Assembly (NCBI GenBank): GCA_902141825.1
Contig: CABFPG010000016.1
Span: forward strand, 1 to 33,035
DNA length: 33,035 nucleotides
Source of the DNA: Thalassocella blandensis
Lineage (GTDB): Bacteria > Pseudomonadota > Gammaproteobacteria > Pseudomonadales > Cellvibrionaceae
Reading direction: 5' to 3'
This document shows positions 1,534 through 26,312 of this stretch, piece after piece. A model generated the notes under the pieces. That model worked only from the letters and a program-made list of their open reading frames with translations. It made no database searches and was not told where the DNA came from. The position numbers were made by a program, and so were the translations under genes. Position 1 is the stretch's first letter, and each line of letters begins with the position of its first letter.

Positions 1534-2370
1534 TCAGGCCTTAACCTGTAAATACAAAGTGGTGTCACCCCATAAAAAACGCGCCTTGCTCACCCCCATA
1601 ATCGGAAAGTCAACTGCGCTGGCGTATTCACTTAAGGGATAACTCACGGTGACAATTCGCGTTCCACTGCGCAAGTGCTTGAAGTGTTTAGCCAGTTTAC
1701 TGATAGTGGCATCTTGCAAAGCCGTGCCGTATAGATAAATGACATCCGCATCCGCCATGTCATATTCTAAAAAATTTGCCTTTGCAAAAGTAAGGTTGTC
1801 CAATCGCGTAGCTTGCCTGACTTCGTTGGCCTTGCGAATAAACACAGGATTAACATCAATCCCGGTACATTTTGCCAATTTGAACAATCGCAGCCAGAAC
1901 ACTCCGATTCCTCGCCCGCAGCCTAACTCATAGACGCTCTCTCCGGCTTGAATGTTGGCGAGTTCAGCGATGGTTTGAAATGTAGCGAGCGGAGTTTCAC
2001 CATAAATCGTTTGCACGGTTTCGTCACTGTGACGACCAAAATACTCTCTACAAATGGTGTAAGGGCTGACGAAAATATACCGGAGGTAAAACTGGACCAA
2101 GGCGTAACGAAACTGAGAATCCTGGACAAACCATTTCCATGCGGCAGCTTTAAGCAGAATGTTACGTACCCAGTATACGGGGACATACAACAGGGCCCGG
2201 AGGTAAACCTGCAGCACATGCTGCACATGACGCAAGGGAGAAAGCTGCGAATCAGGGGAATATTCGCTGCTCATCACTGGATTTTCTGATGCTCTACTCA
2301 TCATAAAGCCGCTCGTATTTATCGGACTGGTACAACCTTCAGTGAATGTAATACTGAAAAAGTTCCACAT
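1534..2370 (-). CDS. Class I SAM-dependent methyltransferase with hydrophobic N-terminal region
   Basis: 278 aa. Motif I VYELGCGRGIGVF, then the ...DVIYLYG... post-I region. Start codon uncertain; internal Met candidates exist at about codon 23/33. Confidence 0.65.
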   Translation of the reverse strand: MWNFFSITFTEGCTSPINTSGFMMSRASENPVMSSEYSPDSQLSPLRHVQHVLQVYLRALLYVPVYWVRNILLKAAAWKWFVQDSQFRYALVQFYLRYIFVSPYTICREYFGRHSDETVQTIYGETPLATFQTIAELANIQAGESVYELGCGRGIGVFWLRLFKLAKCTGIDVNPVFIRKANEVRQATRLDNLTFAKANFLEYDMADADVIYLYGTALQDATISKLAKHFKHLRSGTRIVTVSYPLSEYASAVDFPIMGVSKARFLWGDTTLYLQVKA

Positions 2371-2657
2371 TTCGCTCTATAAGACGAAGCGCTGTGGATA
2401 CTTCCCATTATTTTTTGTGGTTGAGGGTGCTCACTCAATACTCAAATGTTACACAGCCCACAATAAAACCTGGCTTTATGTTAGTCATTTCGCAAACTGC
2501 TGCTATTTAGTTTCACCCTTGCATCCTGTTAAATACGCTTGGGTGTAGTAAGTTCTCTCGACCACTCGGCTCCGCACTACTGCTAAGCCTCAAATCGAGA
2601 AACACAAATCACATAAGTGAAAAATAGAACAAAAATTTTTATTTATAGGATCACACA

Positions 2658-3077
2658 ATGATACAAGAAGCGTACAATGCCTCTCTCTGGGGAATAACCG
2701 TTATTATTTTATTAGTAATTGTGCAATGGGCTATTGCTACCGCAGTTAAAGCCAAGCAAAAAGGCGCCATTCCCGGCAAAATTGATTCGTCATTAAGCCA
2801 TGATTCGTTTGTATTTAGAGCGCATCGCACGTTCATGAATACTCTGGAAAATATTCCTGCCATGTTGGGCATTTGTTTTCTGGCCTTATTTATTGGCACA
2901 GACCCCACCTGGACAGCGGCACTCATATGGATTTTTGTGGCCAGTCGAGCCATACACATGGCTCTCTACTATGCGATTGCGACAGAGAAAAACCCGAGTC
3001 CGAGAACCTATTTTTTTCTATTTGGTTTTCTTGCAACACTGGGCTTGTTCGGTCTCTGTATCGCGACTCTGGTATAA
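2658..3077 (+). CDS. MAPEG family membrane protein (microsomal GST-like)
   Basis: 139 aa, three to four TM helices. Conserved RAHRTFMNTLENIPAMLG matches the MAPEG R-x-H-x-N-x-x-E-N signature. Confidence 0.75.
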   Translation: MIQEAYNASLWGITVIILLVIVQWAIATAVKAKQKGAIPGKIDSSLSHDSFVFRAHRTFMNTLENIPAMLGICFLALFIGTDPTWTAALIWIFVASRAIHMALYYAIATEKNPSPRTYFFLFGFLATLGLFGLCIATLV

Positions 3078-3120
3078 GTTATTGTAAATTTTTCACTCAC
3101 AAAACGAGAACGCTTTGTTT

Positions 3121-13430: not shown

Positions 13431-16400
13431 CTACACCCCACCGCCGTTTGTATTGGGTTCCTGTTTCCGCTTCACTGACTGCCCCTTAGTACTTTTTTGC
13501 AAAACACCGTCTTTTAGCTGCTTTTCCAGCTCACGTAGTTGTTGCGATACATCGCTCATTCGTTCATGCGTTCGCAAATCTATTTCCAGCTTTTTATCCA
13601 TACTCCGCACCAGCGGGTAAATACTGCTTTCGATAGTAGAAGCCAATACCTGTAACAATTTATCAATACCGGGCACTGGTTGATTGATCACTTCTATTTT
13701 TTGTTGGCTCGCGTGAATAGAGTCGTGTATTTTATTCAGCGTTTGCGAAACAAATTCTTGAGGATCGAACTGTGCGGGCACCAGCTCCTGCTTGTCAGAG
13801 TCCAGTCGCTTAATCTGTAATTTAGTCAGCGCGTTAGCTTCTCGACTCATCCTAGATAGAGATTGGCCCTGCTTGGACATTTCTGCAGTTGCCTGTGCAA
13901 TGGTATCCACCGTTTTCACCAGATCTACCAACTGACCAATAACTTTCATGCCAGTATCGGCTTCATCGCCTCCCATGGCTTTGTTGCGCAGAAAATCGGC
14001 TTTAATTTCACTCCATCGCGCCGCCTGCTTATCTGTCATATTCCCGCGTAACTCAGCCAGCTTTAGCAGGTTTTCTTCTGCACCAGCAGTCAGCAATTGC
14101 GCCTCTCCCAGATAGTGATCTGCAATAACCTGCATTAACTCGGCATCGTTCATCACTGAGCTGACCTTTTCCGCCATCTTATTCATATTACGGTAACTGC
14201 CCTGGAGCTTGAATGACGGTTCTGTACGGTATTTATCGGCTTGAGCTGCAGAGGCAATATATTGTTGATTAATCTTCAAGATCACATCACGAATGACAAA
14301 AAGTTTTTTCAATACATCAACAATTTCGTTTATTTCAGCACCACTGTACTGGTAATTGAAATCTGTCGTGGCGACATCTTTTCCCTGAGCCAACGCTACA
14401 AATAAATATACATCTTTAATATCCCGCGTTGCCAACGGTGCCAATACAGCATTGGACGTTAAACTATTCTCGATATAACTCAAGGCGAACTGCTCATCCA
14501 TACCACCGAGAATATCACCAAGATTATATATATCCGCTCGGTTTGCCAGCATATCTGGAATTTTAAACACCTCACCGGATTCGGTGTAAGGGTTACCAGC
14601 CATTACCACGCAAAACTTTTTACCGCGCATATCATAGGTTTTTGTATCTCCTTTCCACACACCTTCTATACGACGCGTACCATCACACAAAGAAATAAAT
14701 TTTTGCAAGAACTCTGGATGCGTGTGCTGTATATCATCGAGATACAACATGACATTATTTCCCATCTCCAACGCCAGGTTCAGTTTATTCAGCTCCTGAC
14801 GCGCGGTTGCATTCGGTGCTTGCTGCGGATCAAGCGAATGCACATCGTGTCCCAGTGATGGACAGTTTATTTTCATGAAGATAAGGCCTAAGCGACTGGC
14901 GACATATTCCATCAAAGTGGTTTTACCATAACCTGGAGGCGAAATCATCATCAGCAACCCCATAAGGTCTGTCCGCTTGCTATCGCCAACGGTACCCATT
15001 TGCTTTGCAAGATTGTCTCCGATAATAGGCAGGTAGGCTTCGTTGATTAAACGATTTCGCACAAACGAGCTTAAGGGGCGGGGTTTAAATTCGTGCAAGC
15101 GCAAGGATTTTCTTTCGCGTGCAATCACATCCTGCCGAATTTGCAAATAACGCTGGAAGTTTTGTAAGTGAACTTCGGCATGCTCATCCAGCTGCAAAAG
15201 AAACTCATCAACCGCAAAATGCAAACAACGCTTGTCGAGTTTAGGGTGTTCTCCCATCAAGCCTTCGACGGTTATTTCCAAATCCACTTCTGTGCTGCGC
15301 CGATCGATACGTTCATCAGCATTAATTAATCCTGCTGCTTCCGGGATATAACGACGCAGTGCATCCAGCTGTTTATTGTTGACCAATGCACTGAGCCAGG
15401 CACAGGATAAATTCCACCGCTCTGCCGGCCATCCGATCATTTTTTCCAATGCCATCTGGAAACGTCGCCACGATTCATTATTCAACGATCGCCGCAGCTC
15501 TTCAACGAGTCTACGTGCATATTTGCTGCTGACAAACTCGGCTCGCTCGCGCCCAAGCTCACACACCAGGTAATCTGCTGCACGACTGATGTCGAGCGCA
15601 CTGACATCCATCGGGTGCAATCGTATAAACTCCATCATGGCGTGACGAATTTCACTTGCTAATAATGCATGTGCTTCGAAACTTGAAAAGTCATCCTTCA
15701 TTTGCTCGGCAGCTTGTGCCCGCTCGATCCAGGTCTCGTATGTTAGACGCTTATTTTGCAACTGTTCAGAAATACGCTGAATATTAGCCCAGAACACTTG
15801 TGCAAAGCCGCGGCATTTAGGGTCAAAGCGAAGTAACTCGGCGCTGTTTAGAGCGGGCAGCAAATCCATTAAAATAAGCGCAGCATCATAGTCATGAATG
15901 CCTTTCTCATACCCTTCTTTGTACCTGGGTGCGGCGTAATCTCGCACCAGCTTTTGCATAAGCTCTCGATCCAGAAGTGCCTGATTCAACTTGTCCTGAC
16001 TCAATTCATTCTCATGTTTTTCAGCGCTTTTGAGAATACTATATGCAAGAAATTCCGCGCGATACACAGAGTCACTTTCAGACGCCAGACTCACATTCCA
16101 GTAAGGTTTTAGCTGGATCAAATCGTCATCGTCAATCGACTCGAAAAAATCAGTTCCACTAAGATGAATATTCAGCGCGTCATCACGCGGGATTATGGTG
16201 AGATCCAAATCCTGAGTATTCACGCTAAACTTATGTCGCGGGCCGAGTTTGATAACATTGCCGTTGTCTTCATAGATATCCGTTTTATCGCGCAAAACAC
16301 GAACGGCTTGCTCCTTTGCCGCTTTGAAACGCGCTTCAACATCGTCAGCTTTAACTTGTGCATCGAGTTTTCTTAAAGCTTCTACAAATTCACGCACTTT

Positions 16401-18833
16401 CAGTACCAAAGGATCTGAAGCGAAGTACGTATTTAAAGGGTCTATTTCGGTAAACTTTGTGGAGCGACGCTCTATACTGACCAGCACCCGACTGGCCGCA
16501 TCTGCAATCGACTGGGCTTTTCGCTGACGGGTATCCAGCAGTTGCTGCTTATGTGATTCAAAGGTTTCATAAATTTCTTCGCGTTTGGTCATGATATCCG
16601 CGAGAAATTGATCATAATCTGAAAACTGGCTCTCAAGCTCTTCCAATTGCACCAGCAAGCGAGACATTTGCTCGTCGCAACTTTGCGGGTCGTCCGCCAT
16701 TCCCAAAGCATTAGTTATACTTTGTGAAAACAATTTAAATTGTGCAGAAAATTGTGCGACCGCCTCTTCTGACCCCAGATTTTTCTGCTTGTGGGTCGCG
16801 TTCGCTTTGCTTTGGTTTAATTTGCTATATACCGCGGAAATAGCATCCACAATATTGGTACGTAATGTTGTATCGTCAATTTTCAAAGAGGTGAGCAACT
16901 CAGATAGCAGATCCAGTCCAGCCGCAATGCTTTCTATCTGCTCAATCAGGGGTTTCAGCCGGGCATTGGTATCAGCCTCCGCGACTTCATGATTGAGTGT
17001 TTCTATACTGTCTAAATAGGGAGTGAGCGCATTTTCATCCGCGAGAAATTCTACAGTTTTTTCACTCAACTCCTGTTGAACTGTTATCAGTTCATCGTCC
17101 ATCACCGCGATTTTTTCTACGTCGATGTAACGATAGTCTTTTATCGTCGTTAAGTGTCCACGTTGATGACGAATTTCATCCAGTGCGGCAACATAATCTT
17201 CTACCGTACTCCAGGACGAGGTGCGAATTCGCGAAATAATCGCGCTCTGCTGTTCAGAGGCTTTTGCCAGTGCTTCAACAGATTGCTGACGAATGTCCTG
17301 CACTTTGGCAAATTCATCTATCGCCAGCTCTGCAGTCTGTGAAATTTCCTGCAGGATAGCGGGAATTTCTCCTACGGCTTTTTCAGACAACCAGTAATGA
17401 TCGTCAAAAGCTCTGCGTGAATCCTTACTCAACTCTTCGTAAAGACGTGAAGAAACACTTTGGTTTTCTATAACACGGCTGATACTGTATAAATCCGAAA
17501 TACCACGCACCAGAGCTGCATTACCAATGCGTCCAAAAAAGGACTGGCTCTCGGGTTGCTTACTGGCAAACTCGTCACTAAAAAAGGGGGTAACCCAGAT
17601 CTGCATTGGATGCACTCGGGTAGCATCTTTTTCCGCGGAAAAAATCACAAGCGTCCCGTCTTCAGCCAGTGCATACCCATGGCCGAGGATTGGATTCTGC
17701 AGGGTTTTACTTATCATGTTGTATGCAAGTAATGCCACTACACCATCTTCAGGTTCATAGAAAACAAATAAGACGTCTTCACCGTTGGGAGAGCGAATCA
17801 TCCGCTTGTATTTCAGTCCTGCAATTGCATCATCATAACTTTTGTGCTCGCCCGACTGAAGGTAATATCCACCAGGAAATACGATGCCATGATCTTCTGG
17901 CAGTTGTACACAGGATGCGCCGATGGCATCTATACGCGTGACTTTTTGTGTCAATGTATTAAATACCAGATATCGCCACAGCGTTTCCTGATAGGGCAGC
18001 ACTTTCAGTAAAATGAGATCGCCAAGCCTGGCGAAATGGAATTCGGCATCATCAATCGACTGGGTTTTATTCTCCACAGGTTCACTGTATATACCACGCC
18101 CTTCCTGAGTGTTGTTCTCCACTTTTACCGTGAGATCGCCGCCGTGTGTTTCCACAAAGATCGTGTCCAGAATATTAATATGTGGAAACTTTCCGTGAAT
18201 AACATCATCCCGGCCACAGGCAGTCCATTCAAAATCATAAGCGGGTGGCAATTGAATATCACGCTCACCGCGATTATCAATATACTTATCAACGGCGCCC
18301 TCTGGGGTTAAGGAAAATCGGAAAACCCGAATATCCTCTATTCGCTCACCTATTTGAAAGCCCAGCAACAACTTGCCATCTTTGATGGTGACTTCCTGAA
18401 TTTTGGTATGTTTGTAGTAGCGATAAAGTTCTTGAAAATCTTTATTAAAGTTTTTATCAGATAGAAACGTATCGGCTATATCCTGTTGTTGTACGGTGTA
18501 CTCATCGCCCTGCTTTACAAGTTTAAACAGCGAAAATACGTCTTCTATTTTGGTTTCTTTCTTCAGACCGATGAAGACGTTGTAGGCAAACAACAAATAG
18601 TTTCCGACCTGTACGATATCCCGGGCCACGCAATTGTTTTCCGTGCGCACACGAACTCGTGCAGCAACAGTGAGTTCCGACCCACCAAACTCTGCCAGAC
18701 GAGCCTCATTTAAAACTTTTATTTCAGCTGCAAGCGCATTTCCCTGGTCCGTTAATCGCTTTTTAATAACCTCATAAGCGCCTCCTTCAGCAACGGCCTT
18801 ATCGACTGTATTTTCTTTTACGGCTTCAGACAT
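13431..18833 (-). CDS. Giant (1800 aa) coiled-coil protein with an embedded MoxR/AAA_5-like P-loop ATPase domain; function unknown
   Basis: A single uninterrupted ORF. The ATPase core lies at residues about 1290-1430. It contains Walker A (SPPGYGKTT), Walker B (VMLYLDDIQH) and sensor-1 (VVMAGNPYTES), with arrangement and spacing like MoxR/dynein-type AAA_5. Long heptad-like E/K/Q/L-rich segments lie at about 560-900 and 1500-1800. The N-terminal 550 aa appear beta-rich and globular. Confidence 0.8.
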   Translation of the reverse strand: MSEAVKENTVDKAVAEGGAYEVIKKRLTDQGNALAAEIKVLNEARLAEFGGSELTVAARVRVRTENNCVARDIVQVGNYLLFAYNVFIGLKKETKIEDVFSLFKLVKQGDEYTVQQQDIADTFLSDKNFNKDFQELYRYYKHTKIQEVTIKDGKLLLGFQIGERIEDIRVFRFSLTPEGAVDKYIDNRGERDIQLPPAYDFEWTACGRDDVIHGKFPHINILDTIFVETHGGDLTVKVENNTQEGRGIYSEPVENKTQSIDDAEFHFARLGDLILLKVLPYQETLWRYLVFNTLTQKVTRIDAIGASCVQLPEDHGIVFPGGYYLQSGEHKSYDDAIAGLKYKRMIRSPNGEDVLFVFYEPEDGVVALLAYNMISKTLQNPILGHGYALAEDGTLVIFSAEKDATRVHPMQIWVTPFFSDEFASKQPESQSFFGRIGNAALVRGISDLYSISRVIENQSVSSRLYEELSKDSRRAFDDHYWLSEKAVGEIPAILQEISQTAELAIDEFAKVQDIRQQSVEALAKASEQQSAIISRIRTSSWSTVEDYVAALDEIRHQRGHLTTIKDYRYIDVEKIAVMDDELITVQQELSEKTVEFLADENALTPYLDSIETLNHEVAEADTNARLKPLIEQIESIAAGLDLLSELLTSLKIDDTTLRTNIVDAISAVYSKLNQSKANATHKQKNLGSEEAVAQFSAQFKLFSQSITNALGMADDPQSCDEQMSRLLVQLEELESQFSDYDQFLADIMTKREEIYETFESHKQQLLDTRQRKAQSIADAASRVLVSIERRSTKFTEIDPLNTYFASDPLVLKVREFVEALRKLDAQVKADDVEARFKAAKEQAVRVLRDKTDIYEDNGNVIKLGPRHKFSVNTQDLDLTIIPRDDALNIHLSGTDFFESIDDDDLIQLKPYWNVSLASESDSVYRAEFLAYSILKSAEKHENELSQDKLNQALLDRELMQKLVRDYAAPRYKEGYEKGIHDYDAALILMDLLPALNSAELLRFDPKCRGFAQVFWANIQRISEQLQNKRLTYETWIERAQAAEQMKDDFSSFEAHALLASEIRHAMMEFIRLHPMDVSALDISRAADYLVCELGRERAEFVSSKYARRLVEELRRSLNNESWRRFQMALEKMIGWPAERWNLSCAWLSALVNNKQLDALRRYIPEAAGLINADERIDRRSTEVDLEITVEGLMGEHPKLDKRCLHFAVDEFLLQLDEHAEVHLQNFQRYLQIRQDVIARERKSLRLHEFKPRPLSSFVRNRLINEAYLPIIGDNLAKQMGTVGDSKRTDLMGLLMMISPPGYGKTTLMEYVASRLGLIFMKINCPSLGHDVHSLDPQQAPNATARQELNKLNLALEMGNNVMLYLDDIQHTHPEFLQKFISLCDGTRRIEGVWKGDTKTYDMRGKKFCVVMAGNPYTESGEVFKIPDMLANRADIYNLGDILGGMDEQFALSYIENSLTSNAVLAPLATRDIKDVYLFVALAQGKDVATTDFNYQYSGAEINEIVDVLKKLFVIRDVILKINQQYIASAAQADKYRTEPSFKLQGSYRNMNKMAEKVSSVMNDAELMQVIADHYLGEAQLLTAGAEENLLKLAELRGNMTDKQAARWSEIKADFLRNKAMGGDEADTGMKVIGQLVDLVKTVDTIAQATAEMSKQGQSLSRMSREANALTKLQIKRLDSDKQELVPAQFDPQEFVSQTLNKIHDSIHASQQKIEVINQPVPGIDKLLQVLASTIESSIYPLVRSMDKKLEIDLRTHERMSDVSQQLRELEKQLKDGVLQKSTKGQSVKRKQEPNTNGGGV

Positions 18834-18896: not shown

Positions 18897-19322
18897 TTAC
18901 TTATTTGCTGTGGAGGTTTGATCGGAGCTTTCGGACGATTTCTCGTCAGACGCTCGTAACTTTCGCGCGGCTTTTTCGCTGCATGACGAGGATTGATGCG
19001 AATTTACCAACCAATTCATTGTTACACCCAAAGCCGCTCCGATTCCCGCCCCCAGAAGAGCGTTTTGCAACGAGTTTTCGTTCTGCCCTGCTTTGCTGAT
19101 GCCAACACCAATACCTGCACCAATGCCCGCACCTATCCCAGCGGCAACTCCCGTTCTGGTACCCGTATTGGTCTTGACCTGCTCCCGCACGCTACCCAAT
19201 TTGCTGATTAATACATTTCTCAGTTCGGATGAGGTAACCAACTCCGTCAACCCCTGATTGTGCAATTCTTTTTGCAGCTGCTGAATTAAACTCGACAGCG
19301 GTACTTCACTTTGTTGTTTCAT
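18897..19322 (-). CDS. Glycine-zipper (GxxxG-repeat) small membrane protein
   Basis: 141 aa. GVAAGIGAGIGAGIGVGI ... LLGAGIGAALG, a classic glycine-zipper (YMGG-like) pattern. Confidence 0.6.
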   Translation of the reverse strand: MKQQSEVPLSSLIQQLQKELHNQGLTELVTSSELRNVLISKLGSVREQVKTNTGTRTGVAAGIGAGIGAGIGVGISKAGQNENSLQNALLGAGIGAALGVTMNWLVNSHQSSSCSEKAARKLRASDEKSSESSDQTSTANK

Positions 19323-19396: not shown

Positions 19397-21307
19397 TTAC
19401 TGCAACTCTTGCGAGTTTTGCGGTGCTCCAGCCATCACTTTGGCAAGAATGGCCTGAATAGTGCCGCTCTTTTCTGCCAGACCATCGACAGCCTTGCCGA
19501 TCGATAGCGACTTGGCAAAGTTATCAAAGAAGTGCTCTTCCCCACCGACAATATCGATTTTCGCTTTTTCCAGAGCCGTTGCCAGTACTTCGGCATTCTC
19601 TTTTGCAATATCTTTCCCAGCGTCAATCGAAGCCAGTGCTTCCTGCAGTGCAGTTTCCAGACTCATACGGAACTCTTCATGAGCTCTGGCCGCATCACTC
19701 ATACTGTTCATCGCACTGAACTTGTCCACCAGACCATCTGCTTCTGCTTTGAATTTCTCACGAATAACTTCAGCATCAGCCAATCCGGTTTCGCGTTTGG
19801 CTTTCGCCTCAGACTCACCTTTGAGCGCAACCACTTTCGCTTCTGATTCACCCTGTGCTGCCGTAATATGGGCTTTTGCCAAACCTTCTTTTTCCATGGC
19901 GTCGGCCATAGCTTCCTGCACTTTCGCTTCGGCTAGACCACTCGCGGCCTCTTCTGCCTGAATGCCTTCGGCGAGTTTCTTCTTCGCATCGGCTTCTTTC
20001 GCTGCCGCTTCCAGGTTCGCCTGGGCCATGGTTGTAATTTCCATCGCTCGGTGTTTGGCCGCCAGCTCTTCTGCTTCTGCACGCTTCACTTCTTTCACTT
20101 TTTCTTCTTCGGCCAACGCTTCCGCATCCAATACTTGCGTTTGCTTACGACGATCCGCTTCGGAAACCTCACGCACTTCTTTAATTTTCTCTTCTTCTAT
20201 CGCAACTGTCTTATCCACAGACACGCGCTCACGAATGACATTGGCAATTTCCTTTTTCTGTACCTCTACAGCTTTTTCAGCATCGATTCGCTGCAATTCC
20301 ACTTCTCTCTCGCGCGAGACAATTTCAAGATCTTTTGCTCGGGTGACCTTCTCAATTTCAATCACTACTGCACGCTGACGGTTTTGCTCCGCCACTTCGA
20401 TCTCACGTTGTTGATTCTCCTTCTGAACCGCCAGCTCCTGATCCGCCGCAATAGTGGCCGCTTCAGATTTCAAGCGCTCCTCTTCCTGCACTTTGACTGT
20501 TTCCGCCTCTTCGCGCGCACGAATGGTGGCGATTTCACGTTGTTGGCGAGCTTCAGCATCAGCTTGTTGTCGCTCGAGTTCAAGCATAGCCTCAACGGTT
20601 TCTACATTCTTTTTCTTGATAGCAAGCTCTTCATCGCGCTCAAAAATATTTGTTTGAACATTTTGAGCAGCCGTGAGTTCAGTGATTTTACGAATACCTT
20701 CAGCATCAAGAATATTGCTGGGGTCCAGAGAGGACTTCGGCGTTTGCTCCAGATAATCGATCGCAACATCTTCCAGCACATACCCATTTAAATCATTACC
20801 GATTACCTGAATGATTTTGTCACGAAACTGTTGTCTATCTTCAAACAGATTGACGAAATCAATTTGTTTACCGACAGTTTTCAGTGCTTCAGAAAATTTT
20901 GCATTAAATAATTCGTTGACAGCATCTTTATCCGATGCACGATTTGCACCCAGGGACTTTGCCACTTTTAAGACGTCTTCGGGGGTTTCGTTCACTCTCA
21001 AATAAAATGCAACGGTAATATCCGCCCGCATATTGTCACGGCAGATCAACCCATCTTTAGCTCGCCTATCCACTTCCATAGTGATCAATGAAATCCTCAT
21101 CAACTCTTTTTTATGGATGATTGGCAGTATCCAGGCGCCGGTGAAAAATACTTTTGGCTTTGGAGTCGTGTCGTTTTTAATCAGCGCCACACCTTGCTCT
21201 ACTTTCACATAGAAAGCTTTGTATAGTGCAGCGACAACCATTAAGAATAGAAATAACAGACCGATGGTGATTATCACCATAACAACATCTGGTGCAAACT
21301 CTGACAT
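19397..21307 (-). CDS. yqiK: Flotillin / SPFH (band-7) family protein, YqiK-like, with extended coiled-coil C-terminus
   Basis: 636 aa. N-terminal TM helix, then an SPFH domain (...ISLITMEVD...ITVAFYLRV...), then 350 aa of an E/A/K/R-rich coiled coil. AAGGAG RBS. Confidence 0.85.
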   Translation of the reverse strand: MSEFAPDVVMVIITIGLLFLFLMVVAALYKAFYVKVEQGVALIKNDTTPKPKVFFTGAWILPIIHKKELMRISLITMEVDRRAKDGLICRDNMRADITVAFYLRVNETPEDVLKVAKSLGANRASDKDAVNELFNAKFSEALKTVGKQIDFVNLFEDRQQFRDKIIQVIGNDLNGYVLEDVAIDYLEQTPKSSLDPSNILDAEGIRKITELTAAQNVQTNIFERDEELAIKKKNVETVEAMLELERQQADAEARQQREIATIRAREEAETVKVQEEERLKSEAATIAADQELAVQKENQQREIEVAEQNRQRAVVIEIEKVTRAKDLEIVSREREVELQRIDAEKAVEVQKKEIANVIRERVSVDKTVAIEEEKIKEVREVSEADRRKQTQVLDAEALAEEEKVKEVKRAEAEELAAKHRAMEITTMAQANLEAAAKEADAKKKLAEGIQAEEAASGLAEAKVQEAMADAMEKEGLAKAHITAAQGESEAKVVALKGESEAKAKRETGLADAEVIREKFKAEADGLVDKFSAMNSMSDAARAHEEFRMSLETALQEALASIDAGKDIAKENAEVLATALEKAKIDIVGGEEHFFDNFAKSLSIGKAVDGLAEKSGTIQAILAKVMAGAPQNSQELQ

Positions 21308-21332: not shown

Positions 21333-22019
21333 TTAGATTTTAAATTCTTGCTCAGAAATAACTTTATAAATATTTTCTTCCGCTACGTACTCCAGCAGCA
21401 CTATTTTATCTCCCCGTTTAAACTCCTCTTCACTTTTATATGATCTCACCTTCACAATCAGTCCTGCGCCTCCATCGTTCACTGTGGCTTCGCCAAATTC
21501 AGTATTTACAATAGAAGTTCTTACTAGCGCCGATTGACCGACTATCACTTTCTGCACTTCCTGATGCGCAGTTTTGAAAAAATCACGAAAAGGATTGAGC
21601 AATTTCCCTGTAATCATGGCAGCAGCATACAGGACGCCAACCAACACCGCTAAAGCGACAATAAATTGCACAATTCCATCAGGTATAAAATGGAAAGTAT
21701 ATTCTACGATGAGAAAACTTAGAATCCAGCCGATTAAACTTACCAGAAAAAATACAAGCGGCATGGGAATACCAACCAAGCCCAGACGCATCATAATCCC
21801 GGCTAAAACATGGCTGCTGGTCAAGCCTTCAGAGCCATCTAACCCGCCGTCAATATCAGGACCATCAAAGTTCAAAAAATCCAAATCAATCAGACCTAGA
21901 ACTGCAATCAAGCCAAAGAACGTAAATAAGATTAGTAGACAAGTAAAAACAATGACAGGAAATGTCAAAATAATATTATAGAAAGGGTCCATTGCTTCAG
22001 TGAAAAAAATTGCAAACAT
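21333..22019 (-). CDS. yqiJ: NfeD/YqiJ-like inner-membrane protein with C-terminal OB-fold
   Basis: 228 aa. Four to five TM helices, then a soluble C-terminal beta domain (GQSALVRTSIVNTEFGEATV...GDKIVLLEY). This is the canonical flotillin partner and sits 25 bp upstream of it. GGAGG RBS. Confidence 0.7.
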   Translation of the reverse strand: MFAIFFTEAMDPFYNIILTFPVIVFTCLLILFTFFGLIAVLGLIDLDFLNFDGPDIDGGLDGSEGLTSSHVLAGIMMRLGLVGIPMPLVFFLVSLIGWILSFLIVEYTFHFIPDGIVQFIVALAVLVGVLYAAAMITGKLLNPFRDFFKTAHQEVQKVIVGQSALVRTSIVNTEFGEATVNDGGAGLIVKVRSYKSEEEFKRGDKIVLLEYVAEENIYKVISEQEFKI

Positions 22020-22517
22020 TTACGTCCTCCGTATGCACACCATTGCTATATCAGCAATATTTTTTGTTGTTATTATCAGGTTTAAATTCCATAACAAACA
22101 ACCTAGTCCAGCAGGAATGGCAGGTTATTCGCAGGAATGTTAATTTAAACACTCCACTCGATACCACCTCTCTTTTGATTCTCTCAAATATATCCTCCAG
22201 AGAAAATCATCCATTTAAGCTTCCTGGACCGCCTGTTACAACCTGAAAAATTGATTCGTCCGTGAATCCTGACATCCCTTTTCCTCCTTTCCTTACGACA
22301 ACTCTCCCACTATATCTGAAAGGGTCTTTGCCTGGATATGCGTTTTTAGAACCACCGTAAATGCCAGACAAACTCCTACAACTCCTGTAACCTTGCTGCA
22401 GCAACATTTCCATAATATCGCTACATGAAACAGTTCCGTCCTGTAAACCGTTTTTCCTCCGTGATCCTCTTGCGTCCAATCCCATTCAGATTTTGTTACA
22501 TTCGAATACGCCTGGCG

Positions 22518-23201
22518 TTATCGCTTTTTCAGACGATCAAGCACATCTTGAGCACTTTTCCCCGTTGAAACAATGCCGGCTTGCTGTAGCTTTTGCTGCA
22601 ATGAGTCCTCCGAAGTCTCTTTGGACAGTTCACTCGCTGCCTGCATCTGAGCAGCTTTAAGTTGCTGCTTTTCCTTGATGCGCTCTAAAGACTCCATTGC
22701 GGTTCTCAACTTTGAATTTGTTCCACTGTGACGCTCCGCTACAGCAGCTTGCGCACGCTGAACATTTTCAGTCGCCTTCACCGTGTCTACCTGCTGCTTC
22801 AAGCGTTTGATATTCTGATCGGCCAGTTTTATGGCACCGCGCAATTCATTCGCACTGACCTCATAATTTGTAGCAGCTTCTTTTTCAGACTGCAGCTGGT
22901 TTTCAAAATCAGCAATTTTTTGTGCAACCTCCAAAGCTAGCGCCTCGTCATTTTTACTTAAGGCCTGCTCTGCGTACCCCTCATACTCACTGATAGTATT
23001 TGTTAACTGAGTACATTTTTCTTCCGCAAGCTTTTGCCTTGCAATGATGGTGGCCAACCCATCTTTCGACTGCTTCAGCTCTTCCGTTGCCTCTCTGACT
23101 TCCTGGTCAAGAATGCGTAAGGCTTGTGAATCTACAATGGCCTCACCAGCTTCGTTCACACCGCCACGAAGAGCGGTCATCATCTTTTCCCAAATATTCA
23201 T
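22518..23201 (-). CDS. pspA: PspA/IM30 (Vipp1, ESCRT-III-like) family protein, YjfJ-like
   Basis: 227 aa, all-helical. N-terminus MNIWEKMMTALRGGVNEAGEAIVD, heptad pattern and length match PspA/YjfJ. AGGAGAGG RBS. Confidence 0.8.
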   Translation of the reverse strand: MNIWEKMMTALRGGVNEAGEAIVDSQALRILDQEVREATEELKQSKDGLATIIARQKLAEEKCTQLTNTISEYEGYAEQALSKNDEALALEVAQKIADFENQLQSEKEAATNYEVSANELRGAIKLADQNIKRLKQQVDTVKATENVQRAQAAVAERHSGTNSKLRTAMESLERIKEKQQLKAAQMQAASELSKETSEDSLQQKLQQAGIVSTGKSAQDVLDRLKKR

Positions 23202-23217: not shown

Positions 23218-23889
23218 TCACGCCTCTACAGGCTGCTTTAAAAAATTGCTATAAGCTTCGGTTGCCTGAATTACGTTTGATGCCAACACTTCAATCTCAA
23301 AAACAATATTGGGCAAGACCGAAGATGCACTTAACGCACCAAACATCTGATAATAATCCTTTCCGTTAGTCAGCGTATCCAGACTAATAGTTGAAAGAGG
23401 AAAGTATTTATGAGTCCGCAACACAGCCTCATTAAATGCACTAACATCTTTCACCTCGTCCACCGACCACAAAACAGCCTCTACGATAATCTGATCACCC
23501 GACACGGTGAGAAACAAAGGCAAATCACCCACTTCATGCATTATCAGATGTATGGCCGGCTCGATACCGTCAATCAACTCTATGCTCGCTAACTCACCAT
23601 TAAACAGCGGCTCTGAACAAAGCGCTTCGTATAACCCTGAGGTGGTCCAACGTTTAATTTCTGCCATCATCCAATCTCCTTTTTGTATTGATCGTGTGGA
23701 TATTGCGCTCTCGTGCACGCTTCCAGTCAACGCCAGATCATCCGCCACTTTTGCACGCAATTGCTTCTCGTATTTCGCCAGATACTCAGCATTTTCGGGC
23801 AAGATCCAAACTTCCTTCTTCACCAGGCCCAATTCGCGTAACCGGCGGCGATATTCTCTCTGGTAATGTGCTGATGATTTTGGCTTCAT
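23218..23889 (-). CDS. yjfI: DUF2170 (YjfI-like) protein with 90-aa basic N-terminal extension
   Basis: The C-terminal 130 aa resemble E. coli YjfI, the partner of yjfJ/pspA-like genes. The N-terminal extension is Arg/Lys-rich (QREYRRRLRELGLVKK...). The 16-bp gap to pspA supports co-transcription. Confidence 0.55.
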   Translation of the reverse strand: MKPKSSAHYQREYRRRLRELGLVKKEVWILPENAEYLAKYEKQLRAKVADDLALTGSVHESAISTRSIQKGDWMMAEIKRWTTSGLYEALCSEPLFNGELASIELIDGIEPAIHLIMHEVGDLPLFLTVSGDQIIVEAVLWSVDEVKDVSAFNEAVLRTHKYFPLSTISLDTLTNGKDYYQMFGALSASSVLPNIVFEIEVLASNVIQATEAYSNFLKQPVEA

Positions 23890-23907
23890 GTGAGTAACTC
23901 TACCCTG

Positions 23908-23964
23908 TTACATGTAATAGGTCAATAAAATTACATGTAAACATGTATAAAACATTACATGTAA
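23908..23964. promoter_or_regulatory. Operator-like array: three perfect 10-bp palindromes TTACATGTAA (plus one degenerate copy) at 23-24 bp phasing
   Basis: Read directly at 23908-23917, 23931-23940 and 23955-23964; degenerate AACATGTATA at 23940-23949. Sits in the 92-bp gap immediately upstream of the yjfI-like start. Confidence 0.55.
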
Positions 23965-23981
23965 GAAAATAAATTAAATAA

Positions 23982-26168
23982 TTATATATATTTCAATAAC
24001 TTAAACTTAAATGCCCTGGCAAGCAGGAGGTCAGGAAACACTTTGCACCGACTGTTATATTCTTCCACTGCATCGTTATAACCTTGCCGCAGCACAGCAA
24101 TTTCATTTTCCAGATGTGTAAGCTGCTGAATCAATTTCGCAGTAAGGCTGTGGGCCTTGAGTTGCGGATATGCTTCCACCACCGCCGTCGCCTGATGCAC
24201 CAGATGCTCTAGATCTCCCTGTGCCGCGCTATCGACACTAATCGCTGACCACTGCCGACGCATATCCGCCACAGTTCGCAATAGTGCCTCTTCATGCTGC
24301 ATGAACTTATGGGCAATTTTATTAAGGGCAGGCACTAGATTCTTCCGTTTCCGTAACGCAACCTCAATGTTAGCCCGGTTCCGCATCGCTCTTTTTCGCA
24401 GAAATACGAGATCGTTGTAATGCAGGATTATCATCAGATTCAGGAGAAACACCGGCGACAGCATGGCGGCAAACAAAAAATCCGTGGTTGCAAAGCGACC
24501 ATTTAAGCCGAGCCAGGCCAGCACAAAGTAAAGGCCCGCACTATACGCAAGAGTCAACAATGCCAGCCCTGCGCGCGCCTTACGCAAAAGAAGTGCCCGC
24601 TCTGTTAAGTTCGACAGCAGGTACAAAGATTTTTTACCCGCCTCTCTCATACACAATCTATCATCCTGCTTCATATCAATCGCCACAGGACCAAGCGCAT
24701 ATAAGGAATCCTGTGACGCCAGCCATTCAACAAAGTAGTGGCGGCTACCGCGATATTGGCTTTCGCTGTGTTTTGAAATTACTTCTGCCTTCGCGGGATA
24801 AATCTTCAGCGAGCCACTCTCATCCACACACAAAAATGGAACGGCCTCTTTCCTATCCTCAATGGTCACCCAACGGGTTTTCCCACCACTACTTCGCTTC
24901 TCTTTGACCCGGTAGCGGTACCACATACATGGCACGCCGGCCAAAGGCGCTTCCAGAGTCCTGGAATTTATAGCCTCGACACGCCCCAACACCTCATTCA
25001 ACCCACAACTCACACCGACTACTTTACTGGTCCGAATATTTTCGATGGCCCGCTTAACAAATATAAGCTTCACTCCAAAAAACACTGCGAGTACAGCCAC
25101 CAACGCCGATATCCCCATAATCCATATCCCGGAAACAGACGACAAAGCGACATCATCAAGCCCCCGTTTTCGCTCCTGCAACAACTCAAGCTCCTGAGGC
25201 GAGATAACCACCTCTAATGCGGGTAATGAGATTTGCCACAGCGGCGCCAACCATCGCTCGGGTATTCGCTGAAACTGTTGATGCAATTGGGTGTGTGACA
25301 TTGCCAATGCCAAACGCATTTCACGAGATTGCAAGGCATCAATCGCATTTTGCCTCAGCGCCACCTCTACCGCCGCCTGCTGTTTGTCATACCGCTCGAC
25401 GGCGTTGTGCAAATCAGCCTTCATCATTAACAGCGACAACTGCACTAGAACCAAGGCTACCGTAACCGCAATAATGCTGATAAACACCAGCACACGATGA
25501 ATACCGAACATGCAAACCAACGCATAGATAGCCACACAGCTCAGCGTCAACCCAAGCCATAAACGAAATAATACTGATGCACCTATTTTCCCCAGCACCG
25601 ATGCCGAAGAATTCGTGGTTATGACAGGATTGTATTGACCGGCCTGACGAAAGCCCAACGACATGCCATTTGAGCGGGATTCCGCAAAGCCAAAAGCCAC
25701 CAGCTGCTGACCGGGATCTATGCGATATTCGGTGTGACGGGTAGAACCGTCAGTACGTGTAAAACTGCGTGCAACCTGCCATTCAATATGTGATTGGTCA
25801 CGCTGACTCAGCAATTGAATTACCGCTGTAGAATCTCGCAGGGCTATCGTCGACGCACGACGAATATTTTCAACGGTTTTCCAGCTTGTATTACCATCAG
25901 AATCACGCTCTTCTACTTCGCGTATGTATTGAAAATATAGACAGGGGGTTTGAGTGAAATGACTTGCTATTGTCGCCCCCTCAGCAGTACCAGCCACTTT
26001 GACCTCGCCAGGTAGAACCGCAATATTGCGCGTGAGCGGAATACGCTCCATTTGTCGAAGCTGCTGTAGTGTTTCAAACCCTTGCGAAGTAAAAAAAACT
26101 GCTCCCGCGCCCCCCAACCCGGCGGACAACAGTAAAACCAACCACCACCTCAAAGACATTCGTGCCAT
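23982..26168 (-). CDS. Membrane protein: duplicated GIDE-like domains fused to a C-terminal LemA domain
   Basis: Internal duplication: TPCLYFQYIREVEERDSDGNTSWKTVE aligns with VPCMWYRYRVKEKRSSGGKTRWVTIE. Each copy is preceded by TM helices. The C-terminus matches the LemA family (...NLVPALNKIAHKFMQHEEALL...VEAYPQLKA...NEIAVLRQGYNDAVEEYN...FPDLLLARAFKFK). Start set at the Met before the signal/TM segment. Confidence 0.65.
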   Translation of the reverse strand: MARMSLRWWLVLLLSAGLGGAGAVFFTSQGFETLQQLRQMERIPLTRNIAVLPGEVKVAGTAEGATIASHFTQTPCLYFQYIREVEERDSDGNTSWKTVENIRRASTIALRDSTAVIQLLSQRDQSHIEWQVARSFTRTDGSTRHTEYRIDPGQQLVAFGFAESRSNGMSLGFRQAGQYNPVITTNSSASVLGKIGASVLFRLWLGLTLSCVAIYALVCMFGIHRVLVFISIIAVTVALVLVQLSLLMMKADLHNAVERYDKQQAAVEVALRQNAIDALQSREMRLALAMSHTQLHQQFQRIPERWLAPLWQISLPALEVVISPQELELLQERKRGLDDVALSSVSGIWIMGISALVAVLAVFFGVKLIFVKRAIENIRTSKVVGVSCGLNEVLGRVEAINSRTLEAPLAGVPCMWYRYRVKEKRSSGGKTRWVTIEDRKEAVPFLCVDESGSLKIYPAKAEVISKHSESQYRGSRHYFVEWLASQDSLYALGPVAIDMKQDDRLCMREAGKKSLYLLSNLTERALLLRKARAGLALLTLAYSAGLYFVLAWLGLNGRFATTDFLFAAMLSPVFLLNLMIILHYNDLVFLRKRAMRNRANIEVALRKRKNLVPALNKIAHKFMQHEEALLRTVADMRRQWSAISVDSAAQGDLEHLVHQATAVVEAYPQLKAHSLTAKLIQQLTHLENEIAVLRQGYNDAVEEYNSRCKVFPDLLLARAFKFKLLKYI

Positions 26169-26312
26169 AATGCTTCCTTCTCCACTCTGCTTTTGCATGC
26201 GCCGCGCAATAAATCTAACCTGTGCATTCGGACGTATACCCTTGCACCTGACTTTATGCACTCACACATTTACAATGTAAACACACTATAAGCAGCGAGA
26301 GTAAGTATTCGC

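Follow-up and report, generated by a model that had tools for sequence, protein, structure and literature searches.

We analysed a 33,035-base stretch of the Thalassocella blandensis genome (the window), in which three identical 10-bp palindromes, TTACATGTAA, lie upstream of a yjfI-like gene that corresponds to bacA of Pseudomonas aeruginosa. Our comparisons indicate that these palindromes are the operator of the bacA-bacB-bacC-bacD promoter, and that this operator is most likely bound by the 45-residue N-terminal domain of BacA itself, a reading to which we give a probability of about 0.8.

The exact copies stand at 23908-23917, 23931-23940 and 23955-23964, with their starts 23 and 24 bp apart. 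They occupy the very A+T-rich intergenic gap of 92 bp (23890-23981) that separates the stop codon of a LemA/GIDE-domain gene from the ATG of the yjfI-like gene (23889), and the closest palindrome ends 18 nt away from this ATG. A first-pass annotation of the window had reported three identical palindromes in the gap, and this description was confirmed: against three copies found, dinucleotide-preserving shuffles gave a mean of 0.03, and none of 100 shuffles reached three. No further exact TTACATGTAA was present in the window, and matches with up to two mismatches elsewhere in it remained at chance level (17 versus 17.9 expected). The elements of the gap are as follows:

23908..23917, no strand assigned: putative operator site O1 (TTACATGTAA), within the 17-nt spacer between -35 and -10
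23931..23940, no strand assigned: putative operator site O2 (TTACATGTAA), 5 nt upstream of the -35 hexamer
23955..23964, no strand assigned: putative operator site O3 (TTACATGTAA), distal and optional, 24 bp beyond O2
23941..23946, no strand assigned: additional ACATGT core, abutting O2, with degenerate flanks and 3 mismatches to the 10-mer
23920..23925, minus strand: putative -35 hexamer TTGACC; TTG at the same place in 63/79 aligned loci (consensus TTGA)
23897..23902, minus strand: putative -10 hexamer TAGAGT, last base 7 nt before the ATG

The ACATGT core beside the second copy accounts for what had been called a degenerate fourth copy. The core itself is real; no consistent equivalent of this fourth site was seen in the printed upstream sequences of the other loci.

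To place these sites in a wider context, we used 80 loci encoding relatives of the window protein, from Cellvibrionaceae, Pseudomonas, Halopseudomonas, Oleispira, Hahella, Arenicella, Saccharospirillum and others, with one P. aeruginosa locus added later (81 in all). The upstream region was defined as the 150 bp before the start codon and the motif scanned was YYACATGTRR. This motif was matched 179 times in the 12,150 nt of upstream regions and once in the remaining 527,346 nt, and exact TTACATGTAA occurred 108 times within the upstream regions and never outside them. Every locus carries one to four copies of the motif upstream of the start codon, and site starts cluster at -28/-27, -53 to -47 and -77 to -68 relative to the ATG. 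The equivalent of O1, aligned in 78 loci, begins at -28/-27 in 63 of the 81, that of O2 begins at -53 to -47 in related loci, and a third or fourth copy is found at about -68 to -77 in 20 loci. Successive sites are separated by 21-24 bp in 88 of 99 intervals.

Alignment on the proximal core gave the consensus TTGA..taTtACATGTaAt.a..TA...T, in which flanking positions are nearly information-free. The TAnnnT element lies at a constant distance from O1 in 64/79 loci. These alignments show that the conserved positions of the predicted operator lie within what reads as a sigma-70-like promoter (TTGACC, 17 nt, TAGAGT), and that this putative layout is kept across the gammaproteobacterial genera sampled. 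The P. aeruginosa promoter, TTACATGTGA-gctg-TTGAAA-tc-TTACATGTGA-tctcg-TAGTGT-gagtcc-ATG, has the same layout as the window, and G+C-rich Pseudomonas promoters also keep the motif. The gene found upstream of bacA in the window is common to one of the 81 loci, while bacB lies downstream in all of them, which assigns the palindromes to bacA rather than to its upstream neighbour. That the motif keeps fixed places in the promoter in 81/81 loci, and is nearly absent elsewhere in the same loci, strengthens the proposal of the first-pass annotation that the repeats form a cooperative operator for a dimeric regulator. The same annotation placed them over both the promoter and the 5′ untranslated region (UTR). 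The overlap with the promoter holds; a 5′ UTR probably does not exist, since the -10 box stands 7 nt before the ATG.

The candidate regulator is the product of the first gene of the operon, which can be divided as follows:

23218..23889, minus strand: bacA / yjfI-like gene, 223 aa, first in the operon (Pfam DUF2170, E = 1.3e-49; NCBIfam BacA equivalog)
23755..23889, minus strand: N-terminal domain, aa 1-45, proposed DNA-binding module (from conservation and remote profile matches)
23671..23754, minus strand: variable linker, aa 46-73 (23% mean pairwise identity; AlphaFold2 (AF2) predicted local distance difference test score (pLDDT) <50 from residue 55)
23239..23649, minus strand: DUF2170 domain, aa 81-217 (Pfam; fold like that of type III secretion system (T3SS) chaperones, solved for the P. 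aeruginosa homologue)

The window protein is identical to T. blandensis TDB9533_04737, and its relatives are named 'biofilm formation regulator BacA' in the sources. It exceeded the cut-off of the NCBIfam BacA equivalog model NF050185 by a narrow margin (302.3 bits versus 300), the alignment running from protein residues 1-219 over model positions 1-204 of 206; the model takes in the N-terminal 50 residues. The DUF2170 profile (PF09938) was passed with 167.9 bits against a gathering score of 27 over residues 81-217, which leaves an extension of 80 residues ahead of the domain. The crystallised P. aeruginosa homologue (PDB 8q8o, E = 2.5e-37) covers only window residues 77-219.

Over the 81 sequences, the N-terminal domain is the most conserved part of the protein, with a mean pairwise identity of 77%, compared to 64% for DUF2170 and 23% for the linker. 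The consensus of its 45 residues is MxxKSSAHYQREYRxRLREQGLVKKEVWILPENAxxLxxxEKQLR. Profile-profile alignment with hhalign connected it to two groups of small proteins: the PF11455 (DUF3018) proteins, with E = 3e-5 over the first 30 residues (30 columns), the local hidden Markov models cross-matching, and protein F of plasmid RSF1010, with E = 7.6e-4 over the whole domain length. No ribbon-helix-helix Pfam match of the Arc/MetJ/CopG type was found for the domain. A phmmer search of 1.84 billion representatives returned 65 matches, so the domain is rare at this sensitivity; of the 18 matches whose sequences were inspected, the longer are BacA-type, the others being short proteins or fragments, and none shows a new fusion partner. 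Searching plasmids by tblastn retrieved only bacA paralogues on Pseudomonas megaplasmids, and a phage search gave one prophage-like match. The basic N-terminal extension had been put forward in the first-pass annotation as a candidate autoregulatory DNA-binding module. Six lines of evidence, drawn from sequence comparison and from published proteomics, now favour this function; as to origin, we read the module as a recruited repressor/antitoxin-type domain and not as a basic extension that arose de novo.

The main argument that BacA would bind its own promoter is that the motif tracks the domain through three settings. In the fetched DNA of five yjfI-pspA loci whose product has no N-terminal domain (E. 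coli, Salmonella, Rhizobium, Photobacterium and a P. psychrotolerans plasmid), YYACATGTRR is absent. The E. coli yjfIJKLMC operon and the other short-form yjfI-pspA loci resemble bacA in that a DUF2170 gene is followed by a PspA-family gene, but they lack both the N-terminal domain and the palindrome, their leader is an ordinary one, and their regulation is different from that of bacA. Conversely, the long-form copies on the megaplasmids pQBR103 and pPma4326F, with N-terminal domains 59% and 61% identical respectively, carry TTTCATGTAA, TTACATGAAA and TTACATGTAA upstream of a divergent bacA/yjfI gene, in a different operon and with a different promoter layout. Their bacA/yjfI (L084 and L085 in our locus numbering, 2240-3100) has an extra 18-residue N-terminal tail and is preceded by an ordinary leader with GAGGA. 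The gene belongs there to an E. coli-like yjfK/yjfL operon (PspA, rhomboid, DUF2491, DUF350) beside a DNA methyltransferase gene, and the proximal palindrome comes after the best -10 candidate, where it is in a roadblock position.

The third setting is that of the PF11455 genes. Metagenome contigs were scanned from DNA alone, without protein input, for TTACATGTAA-N11-15-TTACATGTAA, and 80 loci were returned. Twelve of these were linked to the domain: seven bacA promoters and five PF11455 antitoxin genes. In the latter (L090, L091, L112, L130, L164) the pair lies 12-18 nt upstream of a gene of 70-74 aa, whose products are clear PF11455 members (E 5e-23 to 4e-30); these five include all four of the non-tandem-repeat scan loci above 55% G+C. 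In L130, the sole scan locus with downstream open reading frames (ORFs) listed, a PemK/MazF-like gene follows the PF11455 gene. Twelve annotated plasmid PF11455 genes (L210-L221) were also examined, and in nine of them GTTACATGTAAC, or a variant that differs from it at one position, stands shortly before the ribosome-binding site. The upstream sequences are distributed as follows:

five plasmid PF11455 genes: GTTACATGTAAC
four plasmid PF11455 genes: GTTGCATGTAAC or GTTTCATGTAAC
one plasmid PF11455 gene, Mycobacterium: GTTGCATGCAAC, present twice; protein more divergent
one plasmid PF11455 gene, Bradyrhizobium: GCGCGCAAC, present twice; protein more divergent
one plasmid PF11455 gene, Enterobacter: degenerate upstream sequence

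This looks like an undescribed operator family in which the predicted specificity co-varies with the protein. Motif and N-terminal domain occur together in two protein architectures that are unrelated to each other.

Type II antitoxins as a rule regulate their own expression through an operator. Both bacA and the PF11455 genes have a TTACATGTAA-core palindrome in their own promoter, in the PF11455 case as the 12-bp palindrome GTTACATGTAAC, once or twice upstream of the ribosome-binding site, and the N-terminal 30 residues of the proteins are related. PF11455 antitoxins differ from BacA in being 70-74 aa long, with a C-terminal tail and a PemK/MazF toxin gene downstream. BacA has instead a linker and a DUF2170 fusion, followed by a PspA-family gene, and does not show the arrangement of a small protein with a toxin.

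A comparable arrangement is found in RSF1010, whose F protein is an autorepressor of its promoter (PMC2200642, citing Maeser 1990). F (urfF/cac) resembles the BacA domain as a small helix/strand/helix-type module, A-x-RQ-x-RY-x-ER-x-K-x-KG-x-x-x-R-K-F-W-L. In an RSF1010-type IncQ1 plasmid, reached via pRAS3 RepA (L223 477-520), TGGTACTCA and TGAGTACTCA lie 24 bp apart in the E-F-repA-repC promoter region, around the -35 and -10; TGAGTACTCA is a perfect palindrome and TGGTACTCA has one mismatch. Both systems have short palindromic sites at similar intervals, two of them about 24 bp apart in RSF1010 and 23 and 24 bp apart in the window. They differ in the operator sequence, TGAGTACTCA versus TTACATGTAA, and in that F is a protein of 68 aa that stands alone and controls the replication genes of a plasmid. 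Taken together, these likenesses would mean that BacA, the PF11455 family and RSF1010 repressor F share one small repressor module, put to use in three settings, and would give the PF11455/DUF3018 antitoxin family a proposed DNA target, (G)TTACATGTAA(C).

Several observations weigh against binding of BacA to these sites, or limit how far the evidence for it reaches. Exact pairs of TTACATGTAA occur in unrelated low-G+C metagenome contigs in 68 of the 80 scan loci, so that the 10-mer alone is not diagnostic. The 81 loci are related by descent, and the motif counts are therefore not independent events. Three loci, two of Hahella and one of Oleispira, depart from the layout, lacking the spacer site or having a longer leader. 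The curated family profiles are not reached by the N-terminal domain: UrfF (NCBIfam NF041430, plasmid repression protein F) matched residues 6-49 over model positions 17-60 of 68 with 22.9 bits against a cut-off of 100 (E = 6.4e-5), so BacA is not a member of the UrfF equivalog, and the PF11455 MazE-like profile gave at best 14 bits against a cut-off of 22 (E = 0.049), with the N-terminus of one orthologue only. Scores below these cut-offs amount to remote similarity and not to family membership. PDB searches with a PF11455 protein and with the PF11455 profile returned nothing meaningful and no solved relative. An AF2 monomer of the N-terminal 65 residues was mediocre (pLDDT 68), with helix 6-19, coil 20-30, helix 31-52 and no strand. 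Finally, the phenotype of the P. aeruginosa bacA mutant could include polar effects.

As to the departing loci themselves, the Hahella loci L034 and L036 have no site in the -35/-10 spacer and keep two upstream sites, and in Oleispira L018 about 22 extra nt separate the -10 from the ATG.

The palindromes might instead be the operator of a different, unlinked transcription factor, the N-terminal domain of BacA doing something else. The scores below curated cut-offs would allow this, and Wallart et al. favour indirect control through protein-protein contacts (PMC10948618). Such a factor would, however, need to co-occur with all of the domain settings: the motif accompanies the domain in bacA, in the megaplasmid paralogues and in the PF11455 genes on plasmids of alpha- and gammaproteobacteria (a Mycobacterium plasmid has a variant of it), and it is missing where the domain is missing. 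Moreover, no regulator gene is conserved beside the bacA locus in the 81 loci. We therefore consider an unlinked factor unlikely.

RNA or DNA hairpins, formed as a terminator of the LemA-like gene or as an iterated palindrome like the repetitive extragenic palindromic (REP) elements, could also produce inverted repeats in an intergenic gap. O1 and O2 are able to pair in an 11-nt stem, and the same 10-mer makes up dispersed hairpin pairs after genes in other lineages. The predicted RNA fold is nevertheless no better than that of shuffled sequences (z = -1.2; 24/200 shuffles fold equally well), the stem is A+U-rich with no U-run after it, and the sites keep a constant position relative to -35, -10 and start codon whichever gene lies upstream. 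Since the window contains no other copy, the repeat is not a dispersed element here. On the grounds of fold, missing U-run and register with the promoter, the terminator/hairpin explanation was rejected as very improbable.

A sigma-54 (RpoN) promoter of the psp type, with the palindromes as enhancer or upstream activating sites for an activator, was suggested by the literature: an RpoN site upstream of PA3732 has been proposed in both P. aeruginosa papers (PMC2587700, PMC10948618), and the operon encodes a PspA homologue. In our alignments, however, TGG-N9-TGC was found in only 2/82 upstream regions, at scattered positions, and not in the window, and GG-N10-GC had no preferred position. What is conserved instead is the sigma-70-like TTGA...TAnnnT, and a site inside the -35/-10 spacer is in the position of a repressor. 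The absence of a conserved -24 GG/-12 GC element led us to reject this promoter type, whose probability we judge to be only slight. As the short gene model served as the reference for placing the published RpoN site, we infer that this site may lie inside the real coding region. Lastly, chance clustering of an A+T-rich palindrome, to which the very A+T-rich composition of the gap could have pointed, is refuted by the shuffles and by the presence of the motif in 81/81 loci, G+C-rich Pseudomonas promoters included, and has practically no probability left.

Autorepression by BacA could proceed along the following lines. A BacA dimer would bind each site, as DUF2170 is dimeric in the published crystal (PMC10948618) and the sites are two-fold symmetric. 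With sites two helical turns apart, adjacent dimers would lie on one face of the helix and could bind cooperatively. Occupancy of the spacer site and of the -35-adjacent site would occlude RNA polymerase, so that the operon would be autorepressed. More speculatively, binding of BacB, the PspA homologue, to the chaperone-like DUF2170 domain might tune repression, a role that would parallel that of a toxin on its antitoxin, or of PspA on PspF. The E. coli psp operon resembles bac in that a PspA-family protein is encoded together with its own negative regulator, with possible feedback between regulator and PspA. PspF, in contrast, is a sigma-54 enhancer-binding activator inhibited by PspA, whereas the bac promoter appears to be of the sigma-70 type with sites in repressor positions.

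The promoter also bears on the translation of bacA. In 67/79 loci the -10 box ends with a T that stands 6-7 nt from the A of the start codon, and no Shine-Dalgarno sequence is visible. This suggests that the long form of BacA is translated from a leaderless mRNA, which is a more speculative part of the proposed mechanism. Two kinds of locus break the pattern: in one Oleispira locus a leader is inserted, and the megaplasmid copies carry a leader together with GAGGA. A second initiation signal lies further within the gene:

23676..23681, minus strand: internal AAGGAG resembling a Shine-Dalgarno sequence, 5 nt before an in-frame ATG ATG
23665..23670, minus strand: internal ATG ATG (Met74, Met75), putative start of a short product, just before the DUF2170 domain

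A GGAG is present 5-11 nt before an internal in-frame ATG in 79/82 loci, though the protein sequence of the linker is variable. By comparison, such a GGAG precedes only 5% of 2,132 control internal ATGs of the same loci. The conserved GGAG spans two codon phases and ten dipeptide contexts, which argues for selection on DNA rather than on protein. In P. aeruginosa, the equivalent internal start (L083 3160-3180) matches the start of the 146-residue 8q8o chain. These features suggest a second BacA product, initiated at the internal ATG, that would consist of DUF2170 only and correspond to the crystallised form. Such a short product, made from the internal ribosome-binding site and devoid of the proposed DNA-binding domain, may modulate repression; this too is more speculative.

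Carrying this further, bacA would head a leaderless operon and encode two products, a long autorepressor (recruited domain plus chaperone-like domain) and a chaperone-only short form. The short form and BacB would titrate or remodel the long form, and membrane stress would cause derepression in the manner of toxin-antitoxin systems, driving a Psp-like response. We advance this fuller model tentatively, at somewhat below even odds. If it were true, the experiments on P. aeruginosa BacA would have characterised the short form only.

These proposals can be set against published work on BacA. The P. aeruginosa protein (PA3732/PA14_16140) is orthologous to that of the window, with the same bacB-bacC-bacD order, two palindromes and the same -35/-10 layout. 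As published it differs, being a 16-kDa DUF2170 protein for which chaperone-like protein-protein regulation and a sigma-54 promoter were proposed. PA3732 was described as a 16-kDa protein by Mace 2008 (PMC2587700). The RefSeq BacA of P. aeruginosa, on the other hand, has 206 residues and includes the N-terminal domain (L083 3001-3621), compared to 146 for the crystallised 8q8o chain. Since the 16-kDa/146-residue form starts at the internal Met, the published experiments used a form without the proposed DNA-binding module. In the proteomics of Wallart 2024, the other Bac proteins accumulated in a PA14 mutant of bacA, from which the authors inferred negative control via chaperone-like protein contacts (PMC10948618); the rise in Bac protein levels upon loss of bacA fits repression. 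That paper mentions neither a DNA-binding domain nor a palindrome nor an operator. A BacA-BacB complex has been predicted in a 2026 study (PMC13092808), and PA3728-PA3732 were reported to be co-upregulated in another study. In literature searches, the TTACATGTAA 10-mer returned no bacterial operator and 'UrfF' only unrelated acronyms; no published operator was found for the PF11455 family, operators not being addressed in the DUF3018 papers.

The bac operon, which influences biofilm formation, swarming, the secretion of rhamnolipids and virulence in P. aeruginosa, is among the least understood PspA/IM30 contexts. So far, only a sigma-54 site and chaperone-like contacts have been considered in discussions of its regulation. 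What is added here is a defined operator, a proposed DNA-binding domain that neither the old gene model nor the crystallised protein contains, a model of the promoter and a likely second product, which together provide a candidate testable mechanism for the P. aeruginosa 'biofilm regulator' BacA.

The genes that surround bacA in the window are the following:

22518..23201, minus strand: bacB, PspA/IM30-family gene (Pfam E = 2.2e-46); downstream of bacA in 81/81 loci
21333..22019, minus strand: bacC-like gene, 228 aa; downstream on the same strand in 77/81 loci; no Pfam match
19397..21307, minus strand: bacD-like gene, 636 aa; downstream on the same strand in 76/81 loci; no Pfam match
23982..26261, minus strand: LemA/GIDE-domain gene, upstream neighbour, outside the system (Pfam LemA E = 4e-31); upstream in 1/81 loci

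The order of a BacA operon, bacA first and then PspA-like bacB, bacC and bacD, was found in the window and is common to P. aeruginosa and to 76-81 of the 81 loci. The gap between bacB and bacC (22020-22517, minus strand) is 498 nt long in the window versus 55 nt in P. aeruginosa, and holds a 92-aa ORF (22207-22485) whose last 22 codons start with an ATG (22275) after AGGAAAGGAGGAAAAGGG. No Rfam family matched anywhere in the window, this gap included. Downstream of the bac-like genes, a 1800-aa ORF occupies 13431-18833 on the minus strand and is preceded by a 141-aa ORF at 18897-19322.

The metagenome scan also returned elements unrelated to BacA. In contigs of 36-46% G+C (L139, L148, L150, L158, L115 and about 40 others), (C)TTTACATGTAAA(G) is repeated every 1.2-1.8 kb, both in ORFs and in intergenic DNA, and often forms hairpin pairs behind genes. 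It has the look of a highly iterated palindrome, of a REP-like element or of an element akin to uptake sequences. Four further loci (L123, L138, L154, L159) consist of tandem or satellite-like repeats whose unit contains TTACATGTAA.

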